In this document: positions 4,552 through 30,200 of the stretch, in pieces
Numbering within the stretch: the stretch's first letter is position 1
How the letters are laid out: each line of letters starts with the position of its first letter
Source: a virus
DNA length: 64,000 nucleotides
Strand: one strand, 5' to 3'
Virus record (IMG/VR): IMGVR_UViG_3300028837_000875
Span: 1 to 64,000 of that record
Position numbers and translations under genes: made by a program
Notes under the pieces: model-generated
What the model was told of the DNA's origin: nothing
Database searches by the model: none
The model's input: the letters and a program-made list of their open reading frames with translations, nothing else

Positions 4552-4588
4552 TAGATGGTATGCAAAGCAAGTTCAGGAGGAATTAGAA

Positions 4589-5284
4589 TTGAAATTATAT
4601 CATGGGACAAGTGCCAAGCGAGTTTGGCAAATTACAAAAAAGGGTATACGTCCAAGAAGTCTAACTGGTAAATCTAACTGGAATGAAGTTCCAGAATTCA
4701 AATCAAGAAACGATATGGTATATTTGACTTCTTGCTATCCGCTTTATTTTGCTGTGTGCTGTACAGAAGGAAATAGAATAGGTATAGTTGAAATAGATAC
4801 AGACAAACTTGATGTCAATAAGCTGTTTCCTGACGAAGATGTTATTGCTCAAATTCTTTCGGAGCAAACGGGTGTTTCGTTAAAAGAAACACACTCAAAA
4901 GTTAAAGCAAAACTCTTGTATATGCACGACCAGTGGGAAACTTCGCTGCAAGCCATGGGCACTTGTTGTTATCACGGACTCATTCTTCCTGAAGCATTGA
5001 CGCGCTATGCGTTGATTGACTTGAAAGGCAGAGGACAATTGATGCTCAGCATGTTAGACCCTGCCATTGCTATTCGCAATTATCAAATTAAAGGAGAGTA
5101 TTATAAAGCTTTTGTTGCTTGGGTTTTTGGAGATAGAGAAATTCTGCCTCAGTATGAAGAAACGAAAATGTTTATTGATGCAGGTATTCCAGGATTGGAA
5201 AGGCAATTCAAGTTCTGGGAAGAACAGCAGTCAAATCGTAATGGAATTGTTGTCGTTGAACTCTCGAAAGGAAAGAAGAAATGA
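4589..5284 (+). CDS. ADP-ribosyltransferase-fold (PARP/Tpt1-like) protein
   Basis: LYHGTS...I...GI.P and VYLT....YFA motifs; TTG start after CAGGAGG. Confidence 0.6.
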   Translation: MKLYHGTSAKRVWQITKKGIRPRSLTGKSNWNEVPEFKSRNDMVYLTSCYPLYFAVCCTEGNRIGIVEIDTDKLDVNKLFPDEDVIAQILSEQTGVSLKETHSKVKAKLLYMHDQWETSLQAMGTCCYHGLILPEALTRYALIDLKGRGQLMLSMLDPAIAIRNYQIKGEYYKAFVAWVFGDREILPQYEETKMFIDAGIPGLERQFKFWEEQQSNRNGIVVVELSKGKKK

Positions 5285-8720: not shown

Positions 8721-8984
8721 ATGACACACTATGCTCTTTCATCAAACAAGCCATGCAAGCTCTGTGGAAAAACCCACGGATACATCACTCATGCACATCG
8801 TATAATAATTGCCGATGATAATTCTAAGTTTTTTATGGAGCAGTTCTGCAAGAAGCATTCTGCTTCTGAAGTAGTAGAAGTTGATTTGCCATTTCTTATC
8901 AAGAAACGAATTCTTCTGATTGATATTCTAAGTGTGTTGAAGAAAATAGTTCCTTTGGAAAACAAAAATGGTTCAAGTGGCTAA
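8721..8984 (+). CDS. hypothetical protein
   Basis: 87 aa, CKLC..H. Confidence 0.55.
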   Translation: MTHYALSSNKPCKLCGKTHGYITHAHRIIIADDNSKFFMEQFCKKHSASEVVEVDLPFLIKKRILLIDILSVLKKIVPLENKNGSSG

Positions 8985-11037
8985 GAAGAAAAAACTTAAA
9001 CTAAAGAAGCTTAAAAAGAAACAAGCTCCTTGGCTTATTAGAAAGGGACAAAATCTTCGTAAGCACTTGACAGATAAGAATCAATGTCACTGGCATAGTG
9101 ATGATGGCGTGCGTTGTAAGAATTTCGCAAAGAAAGGAAAGCAATACTGTCGGCATCACGAGGGAAAAGAGACTTACACAACATTAGTTGATTTTGATTT
9201 ATGGGAAGAGATTCAGAAAGCTGGAATCAAGAAGAATGAAAAGCTTTTCTCACTCAATGAATATCCTCAGCTTATGGCAATATATAGAGATAGACATCCA
9301 GAAAAAGTGATAATGAAAGCGGCTCAGTGCGGAGTCACAGAATACGGAACTTTGTTTGGTGAGTTCTTTTTGAAGTTACATCGCGGTACATCTGTTATCT
9401 ATACTCTGCCTTCCAGAAGTTTGGCCTCTTCAATTTCTAAGCAGCGTATTGATTCAATGCTTAACGAGAATGAGCGAGTTTTTCTCAACGTAAATAAAAA
9501 GGGAAATGTTCAGGTCAAATATGATTCTATCTTTGAGAAGCAAATCAAAAACGGCTATCTTTTCTTGCAAGGAACTTGGAAGGAAGGACAAGCCATATCT
9601 GTTCCAGGCGATGTCTTGATACATGACGAAATAGACTTTTGTAAAGGTGATATTCTCAAGAAGTTTAGAAGCAGAATAGGAAATTCAGATTATAAATGGA
9701 TAGTTCAATTTTCAACTCCTACATATCCTGAGTATGGTATTCACAAAGAATTCCTAATGACTGACCAACATCATTGGTGGTACAAGTGTGAGCACTGTGG
9801 ACATGTATTTATGCTTTGTTGTTCATGGCCTGACATTCTTCATTTTGATGAAGAAACAGGAAAACCGTTTTTCGGTTGCGTAAGTTGTCATAAAGAAATT
9901 GCAAGAAAAGAAGGATGGTGGAAGCCGCAAAATCCTTTAAGTTCTAAGCGTGGTTATCATGTAACTAAACTTGCGTCTCCTCGAGTTAGTGCTTCTCAAT
10001 TAGTTGATGCTCAAGAAGAATACAAAACAGAAAAAGATTTCTGGAATTTTGAATTAGGTCTACCATATGCAGGAAGCGAGGACAGAATAACTATAGCAGA
10101 TTTGGAAGCTTGCGAAGATGGAAGATACCATCTCATGGTTCGTGAGCGTATGACTTGTGCAGGAGTAGACCAAGGTGGCAAAGCGATATACGTTGTAGTA
10201 GTGAAGCCAGGCAGAGACAAAGACAGAATCATTTATGCTGACCACATTACTGGATTAACTTGCTGGGCGGAGTTGGCAGTCATAATAAATCAACTTGGAG
10301 TAATGCGTTGTGTTGTAGACGCTATGCCGGATACATTCAAGGCAGGAGAGTTTCAAAGATTGTTCAAGCGAAAAGTTTATTTGGCTTATTATAATGAACG
10401 TTCAAAGGAAGGTGTGAACTGGCAACCGACCAAAGGAATTGTCACTCTTAATCGAAGTACAACTCTTGATATGACAATGGAAAAAATTCGTAGAAGAAAA
10501 GTTATAATTCCAGTTTCTGATAAATTGATTGCTTTCAAAAAACACATGACGTCTTTTGTCAGAGTGAAAGAAGTTGATGACCAAACAGGTGAAATCAGAT
10601 ATGCTTATAAGAAAGTCAGAGAGGACCATTTCGGCCACGCGTATAACTATGCAAATGTGGCAGCATTGAAAATGGATATATCAAGTTTTCAAGTACACTC
10701 TCCATCAGAAAGAAAAAAGGATGCACGCAGTATAGCTGTTGGAAACTACGGAGATGAAATTATAAATCATCTTGCAGGACTGCTGCTTGATAATATTATC
10801 TCAATAGATATGCTTATGAATTATCGAATGCAAAAGACTAATGGAAAGTTTGTAAGTGAAATGGATTTGAGTTCTGATTTTAAACAGATAATGAGTACAC
10901 TTGAACTTAAGTATACTGTGTCTAATCTTATAACTTCAATTCAGAATCTTGAAATTGTGAAAGATAGAATCAAAATAATTCAGGAAGCAAGACGACAAAA
11001 GGCAATTGAAGGAGAAAGCAATGGAAGGGAAGAATGA
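8968..11037 (+). CDS. terminase large subunit (GpA-like)
   Basis: MKAAQCGVTE Walker A variant, LIHDEID Walker B, STPT, CEHC/CVSC, GVDQG nuclease, DHFGHA. Confidence 0.9.
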   Translation: MVQVAKKKKLKLKKLKKKQAPWLIRKGQNLRKHLTDKNQCHWHSDDGVRCKNFAKKGKQYCRHHEGKETYTTLVDFDLWEEIQKAGIKKNEKLFSLNEYPQLMAIYRDRHPEKVIMKAAQCGVTEYGTLFGEFFLKLHRGTSVIYTLPSRSLASSISKQRIDSMLNENERVFLNVNKKGNVQVKYDSIFEKQIKNGYLFLQGTWKEGQAISVPGDVLIHDEIDFCKGDILKKFRSRIGNSDYKWIVQFSTPTYPEYGIHKEFLMTDQHHWWYKCEHCGHVFMLCCSWPDILHFDEETGKPFFGCVSCHKEIARKEGWWKPQNPLSSKRGYHVTKLASPRVSASQLVDAQEEYKTEKDFWNFELGLPYAGSEDRITIADLEACEDGRYHLMVRERMTCAGVDQGGKAIYVVVVKPGRDKDRIIYADHITGLTCWAELAVIINQLGVMRCVVDAMPDTFKAGEFQRLFKRKVYLAYYNERSKEGVNWQPTKGIVTLNRSTTLDMTMEKIRRRKVIIPVSDKLIAFKKHMTSFVRVKEVDDQTGEIRYAYKKVREDHFGHAYNYANVAALKMDISSFQVHSPSERKKDARSIAVGNYGDEIINHLAGLLLDNIISIDMLMNYRMQKTNGKFVSEMDLSSDFKQIMSTLELKYTVSNLITSIQNLEIVKDRIKIIQEARRQKAIEGESNGREE

Positions 11038-12460
11038 CGCGCCGCGTCAAGCTGGACGGATGGAAATCCAGCTTATATCCCGAGACAGAACTCAACTTCA
11101 GGTGAGTGATTCTCGACGTGAGTATGTAGAGCGGGATTCAAAGAAAGGACTGAGATACCGAAGATACTATTTGGAAACTGAGTGGCAGATTATCCAGACA
11201 AAACTTTTGTTTTACGACATTTGGAAAAAACATCCTTGGATTCGTGCTCTTACAAACAAGATTGCTAATATTGCTATTACTGTTGGATGGTTCATTGACT
11301 ACACTGGAGCTGGCAAAGCTACTCCAGAAGAAAAGAAACGCATTGAAAACTTTTTCATGTATCCAAATTATCAAGAATCATTTTCAGATATACTCTGGAA
11401 AACAATAGTGCAATTGAAAATATTTGCCGAATCGTTTTGGGAAATGGTTAAGAGCCGAAAAGGTTATCCGATAGATTTTTATATTCTTGATGGAGCTGTC
11501 AGAGTTTGTCTTGATGAACACGGCAATCCAGGGAGTCCGGCATACGTTCAGAGAGTATTCAACGACACGGCTGAATTTGAATATGACGAAGTAATTTATT
11601 TTAAGTTTCCTGACCCCATAGGAAAAGTTCATCCATCTTCAGAACTCGAAGCTCTTGAACTTACTGTTCTTACTGACGTTTATGCAATGGCTCTGAACAA
11701 GACTACTTTTACACAAGGTGTCAGAAAAGGGAAAGCGTTTATTTTCCCAGCGGATACTGGCCCTGAACAGATGAAGCGCAACAGGGAGCAAATAGATAAT
11801 CTTCACTCAGGAATAATTGGTTCGTATTCTGCTTTCGTTGCTCTCGAAGGAGAATGTACAGTTCAGGACCTTAAGCTTACTGAAGAGAAAATGGAAGCTA
11901 AAGACCTGCGTGAATATCTCCGCGAAGAAATGGCAGCAGTAGTTGGAACACCACTTTCAAAAGTTGGAGTCAACGCTGTTGATGTAAAGGAATCTCAATA
12001 TGTCGACAAATCATTTTGGCAGGAGGAAGTGCAGCCACTAATTGATTTGGTTGCAAACACAATAAATCGTTATCTTGATTTGCTTGGCATATATGATTAT
12101 AGATTCAAGTTCAAGAAATTTCCGATTAGAGATTTGAAAGAGACGGCAAGATTGATTGACGTGCTCAAGAAGCACGGTGCAATTTCAACGGATGAAGTAA
12201 GAGAAATGGTTGGCTTAGATACTTTGAATACAGCGTCGAGCAAGAAGCCGTTTCTTGTTACGCGTGATGGCACTATTATTTTCATTGATGAAATTGAGAA
12301 AGAGAAAGCAAATATTGATGCTGTAAAGAAAGAAGAAAAAGCAAGTGCGTTTCCATTCCAAATGGGCCGTCGTAGGATTGCACGCAAAGGCGCGACACTT
12401 CCTGCTACTGAAGAGACTGCCGCTGAAGAGGAGGAAGCGGCTCCGGACCCTTTTCTTTAA
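11021..12460 (+). CDS. portal protein
   Basis: follows terminase; ESFWEMV, DEVIYFK, GAISTDEVREMVGL motifs. Confidence 0.9.
   Translation: MEGKNDAPRQAGRMEIQLISRDRTQLQVSDSRREYVERDSKKGLRYRRYYLETEWQIIQTKLLFYDIWKKHPWIRALTNKIANIAITVGWFIDYTGAGKATPEEKKRIENFFMYPNYQESFSDILWKTIVQLKIFAESFWEMVKSRKGYPIDFYILDGAVRVCLDEHGNPGSPAYVQRVFNDTAEFEYDEVIYFKFPDPIGKVHPSSELEALELTVLTDVYAMALNKTTFTQGVRKGKAFIFPADTGPEQMKRNREQIDNLHSGIIGSYSAFVALEGECTVQDLKLTEEKMEAKDLREYLREEMAAVVGTPLSKVGVNAVDVKESQYVDKSFWQEEVQPLIDLVANTINRYLDLLGIYDYRFKFKKFPIRDLKETARLIDVLKKHGAISTDEVREMVGLDTLNTASSKKPFLVTRDGTIIFIDEIEKEKANIDAVKKEEKASAFPFQMGRRRIARKGATLPATEETAAEEEEAAPDPFL
12448..12454 (+). other. candidate -1 ribosomal frameshift site (C CCT TTT) joining portal to MuF frame
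   Basis: X XXY YYZ heptamer in portal frame two codons before its stop; -1 frame is open into 12607..14187. Confidence 0.6.
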
Positions 12461-12606
12461 TCTACTCAATTCTGGCCGAGAGCAGAATTAGTCCTGAGGA
12501 CCTGGCTGATTTTCTCAGTGACGTATACGGCTCAGTCTTAGATGGACAAGCTGCTCTTAAAGATGCTCAATTCAGTTTCACGCGCTCCAACTCTGTAGAT
12601 AAAATA

Positions 12607-14187
12607 ATGATTAAGTCAGATGAAAATCTTGTTGCTGATTTCGATAGAATCAAAAAGAAAACAATCAAGACATGGTTGGAAGTTGCACGAAAGAAGAAAC
12701 TTCAAACTGGTGCGGAGGAAGCTAATATAGTCATTGATACGTCTGTATCTGGAAATGAACTTACAGTTTCGGTTGTCCAAGGACACAAAGCAGGATTTCT
12801 TTATGGCTTTGGTGAAGTAGCATCTGGGCTTGGCTTCAAGCCAGGAGATGAAGGCAGAGTTGGAAAGTTTGATTTTGATTACATGTCTCCTGAGACTTTC
12901 AATCGAGCAAAGCAATCGGCAAGAAGAATTTCAAACAAGACTATTGACGGCATGATGAAAGGCGATGCTAAAAAGTTTGCAAGACGCAATGTGCGTAACA
13001 TTGTCAAGGAAGGAATCAGAACAGGAAAGAGTGATACTGATATTGCAAACGAGATAGGTCAGTTCTTTGATGATTCAAAGTATTGGAAAGCGGCAGAGAT
13101 AACGAGAACTGAAATTCCTCTTGCTTATAACTATGGCCGTATTGATGCTGCTCGAAAAGATGGATTAACTAAAGCACGAATATATCTTGGAGGACGTCCT
13201 TGTAACTGGTGCATTGATAACCATCTTGATGTCAGGACGTTGGACCAAGCCGAAGCATATATGAATGCGCATCATCCAAACAATGATTGCACGGTTGTTC
13301 CACTTATTGACTTTGATTATTATGGCATTGAGCCACCTGAAGGATATTATGAAGGCGATGAAGGTCCGCTTGAGCCTCCAATAGCTAAGCCTGGAAAACC
13401 AAAGGCACCTCCAAAGCTTATACCTCCAGTAATTCCTAAAGTCCCGCCTCCTGCCGTTGCTCCTGCGGTTCCTGCTATGCCTCCTAAAGCTCCACCAGTT
13501 ACTATTGACCCTAAGAAAGTTGGTGACCTTCCAAAAGAAACTTCAGCTAAAAGAGCAGAGCGAAGAATAAAAGAGTTTGAAGAAAAGAGTAAAATTACAG
13601 CTCCTAATAAAAGCTCTCAAGAATTCATCAATGAAACGAAAGAACGTTTTGGGATTCAGTTTAATAGTGGAAAATATTACAAGCAGGATAGAGTTCAAGC
13701 TTTTTTAGATTCGTTGGAAAATTTACACAAAAATCTGGATACGAAAATACGCAAAAGATTGTATAAAGGTAATTTGCTAACAGTACAATCAGCAACACCA
13801 GGCAATGAAATTGGTTCAAGAGTGCTTGGTGATTACTGGGAAAAAGGACGTTTATTAAGAGTCAATGAAAAATGCAGATTGACAAGAGAGATAACTAAAT
13901 GGATGCCTAAAGCTCGTCCAAATCTATTGAGAGAATCTTACGAGTGGGTTTCAACGCATGAATATGGACATCATATTTATCAGACTGGACTAACAAAATC
14001 CATCAAACAAAAATGGTTTGGAATTTGGTCAACTGAACCGAAAAGAATTACTATGTACGCAAGCAAAAATGCGGCAGAAGGATTCTGTGAATCACTTGGA
14101 GCTTATATGCGAAGTCCTAAAGCTCTAAAGCAAACTTCTCCAGAGGCATACGAGTTCATTAAAAAATACATAATGGCAGGAGGATAA
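12607..14187 (+). CDS. MuF/SPP1 gp7 head morphogenesis protein with Pro-rich linker and C-terminal zincin metallopeptidase
   Basis: AAEITRTE..AYNYG, C..C, HHPNNDC (MuF); HEYGHH and YASKNAAEGFCE (zincin); frame open upstream to 12427. Confidence 0.85.
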   Translation: MIKSDENLVADFDRIKKKTIKTWLEVARKKKLQTGAEEANIVIDTSVSGNELTVSVVQGHKAGFLYGFGEVASGLGFKPGDEGRVGKFDFDYMSPETFNRAKQSARRISNKTIDGMMKGDAKKFARRNVRNIVKEGIRTGKSDTDIANEIGQFFDDSKYWKAAEITRTEIPLAYNYGRIDAARKDGLTKARIYLGGRPCNWCIDNHLDVRTLDQAEAYMNAHHPNNDCTVVPLIDFDYYGIEPPEGYYEGDEGPLEPPIAKPGKPKAPPKLIPPVIPKVPPPAVAPAVPAMPPKAPPVTIDPKKVGDLPKETSAKRAERRIKEFEEKSKITAPNKSSQEFINETKERFGIQFNSGKYYKQDRVQAFLDSLENLHKNLDTKIRKRLYKGNLLTVQSATPGNEIGSRVLGDYWEKGRLLRVNEKCRLTREITKWMPKARPNLLRESYEWVSTHEYGHHIYQTGLTKSIKQKWFGIWSTEPKRITMYASKNAAEGFCESLGAYMRSPKALKQTSPEAYEFIKKYIMAGG

Positions 14188-14188
14188 A

Positions 14189-14488
14189 ATGACTCTGTAT
14201 AAAATCAGAGACGTCGAGCAAGAAGATAAGCTTGGAAATAAAGAGGAAGTGATTGCAGCAATTATAGAAGTAGAAGATGAAAAAATTTCGTTGAAGGATG
14301 GATGGCAAGCAATCAAAGATATTCTTGCTGCTCCTGCAATTGCAACGCTTACTGGAGGAGAGCAAGAGGACGGAACATACGAAGAAAGCGGAGAAGTCAA
14401 GCCTGGTGATGAAGGATATTTTCAAGCTTTCAAAGATTTGCTAATAACTCAAGGATTCATTGTTGAAGAAATAAAGAAAGAGGAATGA
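14189..14488 (+). CDS. acidic protein, candidate immunity partner of MuF peptidase
   Basis: AGGAGG RBS, immediately downstream of MuF gene. Confidence 0.6.
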   Translation: MTLYKIRDVEQEDKLGNKEEVIAAIIEVEDEKISLKDGWQAIKDILAAPAIATLTGGEQEDGTYEESGEVKPGDEGYFQAFKDLLITQGFIVEEIKKEE

Positions 14489-14572: not shown

Positions 14573-15262
14573 ATGCCACCTAAGGGCTATAAACAACATG
14601 AGGAGACAAAAGAAAAAATAGCTGCTTGGAATAGAGGTAAGAAAAGAAGTACTCAGACCAAAGCAAAGCTATCAAAAGCTTTGAAAGAGAAATGGAAGGA
14701 TAAAGTTTATCGAAAGAAGTTGATTAAAAAAGCACAAGGACGGAAGTTGAGTACAGAGCATAAGAAAAAAATTTCTCAGTCTTTGAAAATAACAAGAGCA
14801 GAAAAGAAGTTTAGTTCTGAACGCAACAAGAAAGTTTCTAAAGGCTTGAAGCAATTTTGGGCAAGTCTTACATCTCAAGAAAAAACTGAACGCTTGAAAG
14901 GATTTATACAGGCGGGCGCAAGAGCAAGAGGATTTTTCAATACTAAAATAGAACAAATAACAGAGGCATTTCTTAAACGTATAAAAGTTGAGTATACAAA
15001 GCAGAAGATGTTTTGTTCTGGAAATAGAAGAGCAATTGGTGACTTCTATCTTCCAAAATTCAATTTGGTATTGGAGTGTGATGGAGAATATTGGCATTCA
15101 GTGTTAGAACAAAAACAAAAGGATAAAATGAAAGATAGATTTTATCATAGTCTTGGACTGAAAGTCATAAGACTAAGCGAAAAGGAAATCATTAACAATC
15201 TACGATATTCTTTTTTGAAAAAACTGCGATTGATTCTTGTGAAAAGAAAAGGAGTGGCCTAA
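14573..15262 (+). CDS. homing endonuclease (NUMOD3-like repeats + DUF559/Vsr-like nuclease)
   Basis: HEETKEKI / STEHKKKIS repeats; DFYLP..LVLECDGEYWH...DKMKD. Confidence 0.8.
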   Translation: MPPKGYKQHEETKEKIAAWNRGKKRSTQTKAKLSKALKEKWKDKVYRKKLIKKAQGRKLSTEHKKKISQSLKITRAEKKFSSERNKKVSKGLKQFWASLTSQEKTERLKGFIQAGARARGFFNTKIEQITEAFLKRIKVEYTKQKMFCSGNRRAIGDFYLPKFNLVLECDGEYWHSVLEQKQKDKMKDRFYHSLGLKVIRLSEKEIINNLRYSFLKKLRLILVKRKGVA

Positions 15263-26444: not shown

Positions 26445-26969
26445 ATGTCAGTAGAGGGTGTAGGTACCGATAAAGAAGTTAATGCTGATAAAGCGGAAGA
26501 AATAAAAGAAAAGGTATTGGAAGTCAAAGACGCTTTTTCAGACATTGAAGTTCTTGCAGGACCTTGTAGGGAATACACCATCGGTGATAAGAAGTTTTCA
26601 CAGAAGCCTCTCGTTATGCGTGATTTCGGGAGGCTGTTTGAACATCTTATCGAGATGCTAAGCATAGCTGTAGCAGTGAATCCTGATTTATTAAAGTCAG
26701 GAAAATTTGAAGTTGATACGGATAATCTTTCGCCAGCCTTTTTAATTGGAATGGCTCAAGGCAGTAAAGAAATGATGGAGAAAGTATATGACATCATTAC
26801 TTTGTTGCTAAATGCTGATAGAGATTTCCTGCTTGATAATCTGAACATTTCTCAATTCACTCGAATTTTGGCTGATGTAATAGAGCTTAATGACTTAAGG
26901 GAAATTATCGCAAATTTTTCAAGGATGGGACGTCAGGTACGGGAATATCTTCAGAAGAGCAAGACATAA
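26445..26969 (+). CDS. tail assembly chaperone (G)
   Basis: between tube and tape measure; slippery A AAT TTT at 26912-26918. Confidence 0.8.
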   Translation: MSVEGVGTDKEVNADKAEEIKEKVLEVKDAFSDIEVLAGPCREYTIGDKKFSQKPLVMRDFGRLFEHLIEMLSIAVAVNPDLLKSGKFEVDTDNLSPAFLIGMAQGSKEMMEKVYDIITLLLNADRDFLLDNLNISQFTRILADVIELNDLREIIANFSRMGRQVREYLQKSKT

Positions 26970-27244
26970 CTTGGGGTTCCATTTTTGAATTTTTTGCAGC
27001 GTGCTATACGTGGAAAAAAGAATATATCCTCGATAGCATGACGTTCCCACAAGTGAAGCTTTACTTAAATCGCAATCTTGCAAGGCGAGAAATGGAAGCC
27101 AAAGAAATAGAAAAAATTACAAATGTGACTGGAGCAATGTTTGATAGCAATAGAAGTAAGGAAGTTACTCCAATGACTAATGCTGATTTGCCTTCTTTTG
27201 GTCTTGGACTTAGGAAGAAAAAGAAAGAATCAGAGGCAGAATAA
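26912..27244 (+). CDS. tail assembly chaperone -1 frameshift extension (GT)
   Basis: -1 frame after A AAT TTT is open through 27038..27244. Confidence 0.75.
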   Translation, partial: KFFKDGTSGTGISSEEQDITWGSIFEFFAACYTWKKEYILDSMTFPQVKLYLNRNLARREMEAKEIEKITNVTGAMFDSNRSKEVTPMTNADLPSFGLGLRKKKKESEAE

Positions 27245-30200
27245 ATGGCGTTACTCAGCATAGGACTTGGCGTTATCACTGCTCCTTTTACTGCTGGCCT
27301 TGGATTAGCAGGCACCGCTGTCAAAGGATTTACGAGTATTCTTAGCGGTGCTTACGGTCTACTCAAAAGCTTCTGGATGAAAATCAAAAAGTGGGCGCTA
27401 ATCGCAACAGCAGCACTTGCTGGTACAATTTATATGGCCGCCAAATTCCAGAAGCAAATGGCGTTTGTTGCTACAATGGTGAAGGACACAGACAAGTGGA
27501 TGGGCAAATTTACTGAAAGCGTCAAACAAATGTCTGTTGCTTTCGGTCAATCTACGAACGGCATGACTCAAGCTCTCTATGATATTCTTTCTGCAAGCGT
27601 TCCTCCACAAAAAGCATTGAAGATGTTGGAGACAGCGGCAAAGGCCGCTGTTGCTGGTTTTACTGATGTAGAGCAAGTAGGAAAAACTCTAACTTCAGTG
27701 ATGAATGGAATGGGTATTTCTTTCGAGCAGTCTGGAAAAGTTGCAGACGTGATGTTCAGAATTGTAGAGAAAGGACAATTAACATTTAATCAACTTCAAG
27801 GAAACATGGCTCGTGCCATGGTTGCTGCTCGTGCTGCACGAGTTCCATTTGAACAGCTTGCTGCTTCTTATGCCTTCTTGACTCGTAAAGGTTTTAGTGT
27901 TGCAATGGCTGAGACAGCTATTGCAAGAGCACTTACATCTACGCTTACTCCAAGAAAAGAAGCGAGAAAAGCGGCTGAAAAATACGGAGTTGAACTTGGT
28001 GAAACTGCGCTTGCTACAAAAGGTTTGTTAGGAGTTATAAAGGATTTAGCAAAAGCAGGATTGACTGAAGCTCAACTTCAAGAATTGTTCCCAGCAATCA
28101 GGGCACGTAATGCTATCAGTGCAATGATAAAAGATGTAAAGGGATTTGAAGGCGACGTCATTGCTATGTATCAGGCAGGAGGAGCACAGGGCAGGGCTTT
28201 CGCAAAAGCAACAGAAACGCTTGCGTTCCAATTTTCTAAATTCATTCAAGGCATGAAAGTATTCTTGATTGACTTAGTCACTCCAATGTTGCCAGCTCTG
28301 CAAAAGCTATTCAAGCGACTTTCAATGATTGCAGAATACTTAAGGACAACTTTTGCGGTAGATATTGCTGGAGATATGGCCGCGCTTGCAGACAACATTG
28401 TTAAGAAAATAGAGAGTGTAATTTTTTGGATTATGCAAGAAGTTCCTTATATCTTCCAGAAGATTTGGGGCTATCTTAAGTTTACTATGAAAATCATTTC
28501 TACTGTTCTTGATGTTGGAATTCTCAAGACACTGGTTGGAGCTTATTGGACTTATCTTACAAATTTCTTTGAGAATATAATCAGAGTTGTAACTGGATTA
28601 GCTCGGGCAGTTGGCGAAAGACTTTATCAAATAGCTCGTAAAACCTGGTGGGAAATAAAAAGTTTTATTACTGGTGAAGCGATTCCGGATTACATAAATG
28701 AATTTACTGGTATGCTTGATTACATAGAACTCCAATTGACTAACAGGATGCCAGATGCATTCAAAGAAGGATGGCAAAAGGCAAGTAAATGGTATGAGGA
28801 TTATACAAAAGGAATTGATGCTAAATATGAAGCACGAGCTAAAAAGCTTGCGGCGTTACGAGATAAGATGAATCAAGAAGAACTCAAAGGCGCACAAGAC
28901 AATGCTGAATCTGCAAGCAAGATAGACCATGCTTTTGAAAACGAGAAAATGAATGTAGCAAAAAAAGCTATTAAGGAAATAATAGAGGAAGAGGAAAAGA
29001 AGATAGCACATCTTAAAGCTCTCGGTCAGCTTTCTTTGGATGAGGAAATCAAACGCTATAAGAAACTTCTTTCTATTGCAAAAGCTGATACAGAAGAAAG
29101 AATGAAGCTTGAACAGAAAGTATATGAGCTTGAGAAATCATTACGAGAAAGAAGGAAGAGCGAGGCTTTTGAGCACTTTGGTTATATGGAAAAAACTGAA
29201 CGTGAAGTAACTCAAGCTAAGGTAGGTTATCTTGAAAAGTTTCTCAAGGAAGAAAAAGGAAGTTATCAAGAAAGACGAGCGGCTGCAATAGAACTATTCA
29301 AGCTACGTCAAGAGTTGCGCAAGATGGATATGGAAGAACAAAAGAAACTCAATGAATTTTATATGGATGAAGATTGGAAGCGACTCAAAGCTCAAGAAGA
29401 GATACTTAAGAAACGCAAGTTCATGTTTGCTCGTGATAAATTTGCACATCAGAAAATAGATGCAGCATTGCAAAAAAATCTAAGAAGGCAAGCTGAACAA
29501 AGAGCAGAGTTTATCCGCAAGCTTACAGTTAAGCAGACAAAGACTTGGGACCTTGAAGGACTTAGAAGGCTCAAGATTGCAGAGCGTCACGCAGAGGAAG
29601 CAGTAAAGAAGGACAAGCTCTCGGCAAAAGAGAAGGCAGCTTATGAGAAAGAGCTTGAGAAAATACGAGAGCAGATAACACAAGCTCGTGGCGACGTGAT
29701 GAAAAAAGAGGGAATGAAAACTGAGGACCTGTTAAAGAAAGAACAAGAGTGGCATAAGGCACTTGAAAAAGAAATAGCAAAAGCAACTGGCAAGAGAGTA
29801 GACGAAGTTGCAGATAAAGAAAAATCAACACAAGAAAAACGAGTCCAGCAGGCAGAAGAGACAAAGCAGAAAGTTGGAGAGATAGGAGACAAAGCAAAAG
29901 GAAAGATAAAAGAAATCTCAGAAGCTATGCAAGATTCTATGACAAGTGCAATCAAAGCAATACTTGAAGCATTGAAAAAACTTGAACAACAATTGATAGC
30001 TATCTTCGATAGAATCAGACAGATATGTGCAGCGGCTCAATGTGGCGGTGCTTTGCCGGTACCAGGCTTCGGCAAGGCGGCCGCTGGCAGATTGCTCAAT
30101 GGAAAGAGAGCAGGAGCAGGGACGGCTATTACTAAGCGAGACGTTAAAGTGGGACCAATATACATTGGCAAGATTGATTCAATGGTTGATGTTATTCGAG

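Follow-up and report, generated by a model that had tools for sequence, protein, structure and literature searches.

A conserved slippery heptamer at the end of a phage portal gene points to a portal-MuF-peptidase fusion made by -1 frameshifting

Introduction

How is the protein encoded directly downstream of a portal gene produced when its reading frame is open well before its first start codon and differs in phase from the gene that precedes it? This question is raised by the head-to-tail module of an uncultured tailed phage from marine sediment, represented by IMG/VR record IMGVR_UViG_3300028837_000875 (88,571 bases), of which positions 1 to 64,000 were analyzed here (the window; all coordinates refer to it, and the features of the portal-MuF region lie on the forward strand). 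In this module, a large terminase gene (8968–11037) is followed by the portal gene (11021–12460), a gene-free stretch of 146 nucleotides (nt), and an open reading frame (ORF) that runs from an ATG at 12607 to 14187 and encodes a MuF-like domain and an HExxH motif. An earlier reading of the sequence, referred to here as the original prediction, had proposed that a programmed -1 frameshift joins the two proteins, with most ribosomes making the portal and a minority making a portal-MuF-peptidase that carries an ejectable effector.

Tail chaperone and capsid genes of phages are familiar sites of programmed -1 frameshifting. Our search of the literature for a frameshift at a portal-MuF junction found no paper describing one, in agreement with the original prediction, which knew of none; the word "frameshift" is absent from the paper on MuF toxins (Jamet et al., 2017; PMC5576092). 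Portal-MuF fusion genes in a single frame have been described in the Microbacterium phage clusters EA3/EA5/EA8 and EB (PMC7302621). We consider it probable, at roughly 0.85 on the basis of sequence comparison, that a programmed -1 frameshift makes a portal-MuF-peptidase fusion in this phage, because the signal is conserved, the apparent gap codes for protein, and the predicted product is colinear with natural fusions.

Results

A slippery heptamer in the last codons of the portal gene

The portal gene (479 amino acids (aa), 55 kDa, 0 frame) ends GAC CCT TTT CTT TAA, and contains in its own frame the heptamer C_CCT_TTT (12448–12454), a slippery sequence of the X_XXY_YYZ type that lets both tRNAs re-pair in the -1 frame. 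The stop codon TAA (12458–12460) lies one sense codon past the heptamer and ends the plain portal. In the -1 frame, a TGA at 12424–12426 is followed by an open frame from 12427 to the stop at 14185–14187 (12427–14187; 586 codons, 577 of which are added to the portal after a shift). The first ATG, GTG or TTG of this frame is the ATG at 12607, which leaves the 146-nt gap at 12461–12606. The predicted -1 product has 1055 aa and a mass of 120 kDa, with the junction ...APDPF-SLIYS.... The heptamer and its frame, the extent of the open -1 frame, the length of the gap and the sizes of both products are all as the original prediction had given them. The two domains are not encoded by a single fusion gene in the window, as the stop at 12458–12460 and the frame change separate them.

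The sequence C_CC.U_UU.U belongs to the H_HH.U_UU.Y heptamers, which are among the most efficient classes in E. coli (PMC4066793). It is also rare: among the approximately 17,900 codons of the window, this is the sole in-frame copy of CCCTTTT. From the codon usage of the window, NNC-CCT-TTT is expected for about 7% of Asp/Asn-Pro-Phe tripeptides, and the spelling TCC-CCT-TTT for less than 1% of Ser-Pro-Phe tripeptides.

Conservation of the heptamer and the frame structure in diverged relatives

Three diverged relatives were read as DNA, one from IMG/VR (L001) and two from JGI metagenomes (L002 and L003). Compared to the window they are 42–52% identical in MuF and 49–55% identical in the portal protein. 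Their portal genes end GAC CCT TTT ACG TAA, AAC CCT TTT CGG TAG and TCC CCT TTT GTC TGA, such that in 4/4 loci, the window included, the heptamer stands in the portal frame and is followed by one sense codon and a stop, for which all three stop codons (TAA, TAG, TGA) are used. The seven bases of the heptamer, including three wobble positions, are invariant in the four loci despite silent sites in the gap region that are close to saturated. The heptamer is also kept in a strain of about 85% identity from an independent study, which differs from the window by 38 substitutions in 262 nt, without gaps and with none of the substitutions in 12428–12455; the codon after the heptamer has changed in this strain from CTT to CAC. 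Both the heptamer and the open -1 frame, which the original prediction had proposed to look for in relatives, are kept in all relatives readable as DNA.

The possibility of an indel introduced by assembly was addressed with contigs of four runs from three studies, compared over 11800–13200, and no indel was present at the junction. In the two runs of the probable source sample, and in short contigs of two independent studies, the junction reads exactly as in the window, without a gap.

Outside these sources, the known phage records contain no near DNA match to the window and no tblastn match to the MuF ORF, and a search of the same records with the portal retrieved only mycobacteriophage portals of 22% identity. 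No relatives were found in the genome contigs scanned, and the viral contigs scanned yielded a single relative contig (L001, identical to L004 and L007) and none for P0143. In L001 the MuF frame breaks again inside the domain, at approximately 4570–4956 of that contig: the tblastn match extends to 4956, and the ORF ends at 4705. This second break could reflect another change of frame, inserted sequence or an error in the contig.

The gap as coding sequence of the -1 frame

The original prediction had noted that the gap reads like protein, and the substitutions in four loci bear this out. In the 150 nt past the heptamer the -1 frame is free of stops in 4/4 loci and the other two frames are rich in stops, and codon positions 1, 2 and 3 of the -1 frame show nucleotide identities of 0.58, 0.65 and 0.33 among the four loci. 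From the stop-free frame and this codon-position pattern it follows that the region evolves as protein from the heptamer onward. It would form a linker in the -1 frame (12454–12606) of about 50 conserved residues that joins the portal to the MuF domain, and in alignment it is colinear with the in-frame fusions P0010, P0017 and P0018 described below.

A start codon for separate translation of MuF is not evident from the comparison. No Shine-Dalgarno (SD)-like motif is present in the 20 nt before ATG 12607, as the original prediction had stated, and the ATG itself is not conserved. For comparison, an SD motif, typically AGGAGG, precedes 36 of the 63 long ORFs in the window. In each relative the first canonical start of the -1 frame sits at a different, non-homologous position, and none of the four first starts readable as DNA is preceded by an SD motif. 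The -1 ORF is therefore one without a conserved start that is coding from the heptamer onward. The ATC that overlaps the portal stop was considered as a reinitiation codon and rejected: it is ATC in the window and L001, GTC in L002 and ATA in L003.

Portal ends, natural fusions and evolutionary history

For further portal homologs (n = 11, 50–82% identical) the comparison was made at the protein level. Ten of the eleven end in D/N/H-P-F plus zero to two residues, the ten PF-type ends being DPFR, DPFS, DPFY, DPFH, DPFL, NPFLK, NPF, NPFR, HPFQ and the DPFL of the window itself.

An exhaustive HMMER search with the gap and the MuF domain as query retrieved many single-frame proteins with this region C-terminal to a portal domain. 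One of them, P0010, is an in-frame portal-MuF fusion of 750 aa, in which residues 456–744 match residues 6–295 of the query and whose portal part is 49% identical to that of the window. Its junction reads ...NDPF-SMIG..., compared to ...PDPF-SLIY... predicted for the window, and the alignment is gapless through the helix motif that follows, a motif also common to the remote fusions P0017 and P0018. Further in-frame fusions are P0013, P0015, P0016, P0017, P0018, P0020, P0022 and P0024, all of which carry PF04860. The in-frame outgroup fusions lack the DPF motif at the junction position. Colinearity is also evident with the fused family phrog_2662 (717 positions), where the portal matches 58–467 and the MuF ORF 521–679.

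A maximum-likelihood tree built on the portal parts places the 13 split forms together with P0010 in a single clade (support 97/99). Every outgroup portal belongs to an in-frame portal-MuF fusion, and P0010 is nested within the split clade next to L001 (support 94/75). In-frame fusions, named in the original prediction as a possible check, are thus found both inside the clade and in all outgroups. On the basis of this tree, it is likely that a fused ancestor underwent a change of frame by one base that was kept by a slippery site, followed by one return to the in-frame state in P0010. It is possible that the in-frame state of P0010 arose through an assembly error in its contig.

Candidate stimulatory elements

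Upstream of the heptamer, an internal SD-like AGGAGG (12429–12434) lies at a distance of 13 nt, and is a candidate 5' stimulator of the dnaX type. SD-like elements are present in 3/4 loci, with GGAGGAGG 7 nt from the heptamer in L001 and GAGGAGG 10 nt from it in L002, and none in L003. The window has roughly one internal GGAGG per kb.

Downstream, a hairpin at 12464–12492 begins 9 nt past the heptamer, with 7 + 3 bp and an 8-nt loop, and could be a weak 3' stimulator. Its predicted stability of -8 kcal/mol is not significant against shuffled sequence (z = -1.1), and in the strain of about 85% identity one G-C pair of its stem has become G-U. A hairpin can form at the homologous place in the four loci, with a weak consensus helix. 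The hairpin of L003 is strong (12 bp, 7 nt past the heptamer, z = -4.4), and the occurrence of the only strong hairpin in the sole locus without an SD-like element is suggestive, among four sequences, of complementarity between the two elements. An Rfam search around the frameshift site gave no match. The hairpin GTCC-TGA-GGAC, to which the original prediction had pointed, is present at 12491–12501; we rejected it as a stimulator in view of its 4-bp stem, its distance of 37 nt downstream and its lack of conservation.

The predicted MuF-zincin extension

The -1 ORF encodes three parts after the linker: a predicted MuF (SPP1 gp7-like) head-morphogenesis domain (12604–13326), assigned through PF04233, PHROG and a structure model; a linker rich in Pro, Ala and Lys (13375–13560), recognized from sequence and low model confidence (predicted local distance difference test (pLDDT) < 50); and a predicted C-terminal zincin domain (13564–14184), with the motif HEYGH at 13957–13971 and an EGFCES glutamate motif from 14077. 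The match of the window MuF to PF04233 is weak (17–18.5 bits, cut-off 29.6), but the same profile is matched by 4/6 family members that are close homologs (best E = 3.4e-7), and the ORF matches the head morphogenesis family phrog_2468 with E = 4.8e-8.

The structure model of the -1 ORF was built from 15 aligned sequences and has a mean pLDDT of 66. Residues 60–300, the MuF domain, are modeled with a pLDDT of 85–95. The first 50 residues appear as two helices of low confidence, as would be expected of a linker that may pack on the portal, and residues 315–378 as a disordered Pro/Ala/Lys linker; the last 80 residues, with HEYGH and the downstream Glu, are moderately confident. The Pfam family ATLF matches the zincin domain below its curated cut-off (E = 8.8e-5, 22.7 bits, cut-off 27.4). 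In a Foldseek search of the PDB nothing was matched at E ≤ 0.001, and no solved MuF-like fold is among the top rows; the best rows are lethal factor and PPEP-1/2/3 (E 0.05–0.6, probability 0.9–0.99). These data suggest, not conclusively, that the modeled domain resembles the M34 peptidases of the lethal factor or Pro-Pro endopeptidase type.

The HExxH motif is kept in P0004, P0005, P0007 and P0009, and the close homologs P0003 and P0006 have other C-terminal domains. The HExxH homologs mostly have a long Pro-rich linker as well (P0004, P0007, P0009), which P0003 and P0006 lack. The predicted peptidase may cut its own Pro-rich linker.

Genomic context

The portal gene starts at ATG 11021, 6 nt 3' of AAGGAG, and this is also the start of the record protein P0136. 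Its product matches PF04860 with E = 1e-27 (97.6 bits, curated cut-off 39.1), as well as the portal families phrog_2662 and phrog_12. A TerL gene (PF05876) lies directly 5' of it, so that both the profile and the terminase neighbor identify it as a portal gene. The MuF ORF lies immediately 3' of the portal gene, which is the context of MuF genes in PMC5576092.

A 99-aa ORF at 14189–14488 begins 2 nt past the stop of the MuF-zincin frame and has no Pfam or PHROG match; by its position it is a candidate immunity or inhibitor gene. Within the head module an ORF of the homing-endonuclease type, with NUMOD3 and a DUF559/endonuclease-like domain (14573–15262), is placed between the MuF gene and an ORF of 1335 aa without a PHROG match. 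A 36-nt piece of the portal gene (11928–11963) recurs with five differences in short contigs from three runs, where in each run's contig it has identical unrelated flanks on both sides; it probably stems from a more distant relative in which this portal segment is conserved.

Discussion

Proposed mechanism

At the heptamer, a ribosome would hold tRNA-Pro on CCU and tRNA-Phe on UUU, and a fraction of the ribosomes would slip back to CCC and UUU. Ribosomes that do not slip would read one more codon and terminate, releasing the 479-aa portal, and those that slip would translate 577 further codons to give a portal-linker-MuF-zincin protein of 1055 aa. MuF would then be made only as the C-terminal extension of some portal subunits, because the ORF has no usable start of its own. 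The comparison supports the fusion that the original prediction had proposed; its further points, that a minority of ribosomes shift and that the effector is ejectable, are inferences. The shifted form would be the minor product, with most ribosomes terminating, and the slip would be stimulated by the upstream AGGAGG (window, L001 and L002) or by the downstream hairpin (L003).

The same genome has a canonical tail-chaperone pair at 26445–27244, with a G-like ORF at 26445–26969, an in-frame A_AAT_TTT at 26912–26918 and a -1 frame that is open until just before the ATG of the tape-measure gene at 27245, and a second -1 frameshift is probably in use there. Since this heptamer also places UUU in the A site, slipping on that codon would already be within the repertoire of the phage.

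In portal structures, the C-terminus of the protein is located in the crown and faces the capsid interior. Because of this orientation, fused subunits would keep MuF and the peptidase within the head, at its portal vertex. The frameshift efficiency could set a low copy number of the fusion, similar to SPP1 gp7, which binds the portal and is present in 1–2 copies per capsid. A protein fused to the portal could not leave the capsid without cleavage. What is said here of the efficiency of the shift, the stoichiometry of the fusion, any release of the enzyme and the role of the fused protein in the virion is inferred.

A more far-reaching scenario, which we regard as doubtful, combines the MuF domain, the Pro-rich linker and the zincin of the Pro-Pro endopeptidase type into a portal-tethered, self-freeing enzyme that the frameshift doses onto a few subunits per head. 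By cleaving its own linker, or a host target, the zincin would be able to leave with the DNA at infection, and recoding at the portal might be a general means, missing from annotations, of loading effectors in a fixed number.

Alternative explanations

An improbable alternative is that portal and MuF-peptidase are two separate genes, with MuF translated by itself from ATG 12607 or from some non-canonical codon of the gap, and with the heptamer kept only for the sake of a C-terminal Asp-Pro-Phe. The ATG does exist, gene callers give separate proteins in all split relatives, and the start called for P0003 lies early in the gap. However, the called starts are non-homologous and none of the four readable ones has an SD motif, about 50 codons upstream of the starts are conserved without a start among them, and a stop lies 8 codons before the heptamer. 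Conservation extends to the codon level and includes the wobble bases, the ATC at the portal stop of two loci is replaced by GTC and ATA in the other two, and P0010 reads through the same junction in frame.

The -1 product could in principle also arise by transcriptional rather than ribosomal slippage, on the C3T4 run. This would yield the same protein, and the two mechanisms look alike when only sequences are compared. In known cases, productive slippage by the polymerase takes a homopolymer run of about 8–9 or more. The longest run here is 4 T, and the X_XXY_YYZ pattern is conserved in a fixed frame, a feature of consequence only for the re-pairing of tRNAs; we therefore regard slippage of the polymerase as highly unlikely. 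As the ancestors were in-frame fusions and indels arise easily in homopolymer runs, we also considered an indel made during assembly, or a once fused gene recently inactivated by a frameshift mutation. Such an artefact or decay is at odds with the recurrence of this frame structure in four independent assemblies, 11 protein records and gap-free contigs of three studies. It is also at odds with a downstream frame that remains unbroken and constrained as coding sequence between proteins about 50% diverged, and is already refuted as far as sequence data allow.

Several observations weigh against programmed frameshifting at this site. The SD-like copies sit in Glu-rich tails, where GAG-GAG runs are not unlikely, and the downstream hairpin is not significant in 3/4 loci (z -0.7 to -1.3). 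The portal of P0145 ends NPT rather than PF; this relative may use another slip site, or none. The gene caller places the start of P0003 only about 16 codons past the heptamer, and independent MuF initiation may occur in some lineages. Finally, DNA was readable for four loci and one strain, and the remaining relatives are known by their protein ends.

Comparison with known systems

A programmed frameshift at the portal-MuF junction would most resemble that of the tail chaperone genes G and GT, a -1 frameshift of lambda and most long-tailed phages (Xu, Hendrix and Duda, 2004, as cited in PMC7302621 and PMC7911831). In both, the upstream structural gene has an X_XXY_YYZ heptamer a few codons short of its stop, the downstream ORF lacks a start of its own, and the signal is conserved across diverged phages. 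The two products of G/GT share their N-terminus and are made in a fixed ratio; portal and portal-MuF, known here from sequence, are likened to them in this respect. In contrast to G/GT, the gene pair is portal and MuF, the extension is 577 aa long and holds a predicted enzyme, and the stop follows one codon past the heptamer.

With respect to the protein, the nearest counterparts are the in-frame portal-MuF fusions of Microbacterium phages and phrog_2662, which have the same two domains in the same order and are colinear through the junction. In those fusions every portal subunit carries MuF, whereas the different frames in the window make both a plain portal and a fusion possible.

The layout of the signal is similar to that of E. 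coli dnaX (tau/gamma), where an X_XXY_YYZ heptamer is accompanied by an upstream internal SD-like element and a downstream hairpin. The SD-like element of dnaX lies 10 nt upstream of its heptamer, compared to 13, 7 and 10 nt in the window, L001 and L002. Shifting yields the shorter product in dnaX, where the 3' hairpin is strong, whereas here it would yield the longer product, and the hairpin is weak except in L003.

MuF toxins have polymorphic C-terminal domains, and 20% of them carry a metallopeptidase (PMC5576092). Like these toxins and SPP1 gp7, the muf gene of the window lies directly 3' of the portal gene and has a variable C-terminal domain, a predicted zincin here and others in P0003 and P0006. 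MuF toxins and SPP1 gp7 are separate polypeptides that bind the portal non-covalently, unlike the fusion predicted here.

Implications

Thousands of phage genomes have portal and MuF annotated as two genes. If a programmed frameshift joins them as proposed, a real virion protein of 120 kDa with a terminal enzyme is missing from the annotations, and the copy number of the packaged effector would be set by frameshift efficiency, and not by binding as for SPP1 gp7. The case also has a clear evolutionary direction, from fused ancestors to a split kept by a slippery site and one apparent return to the in-frame state. Under the same condition as above, the portal-MuF junction would be a second widely conserved recoding site in the structural modules of tailed phages, beside that of the tail chaperone.

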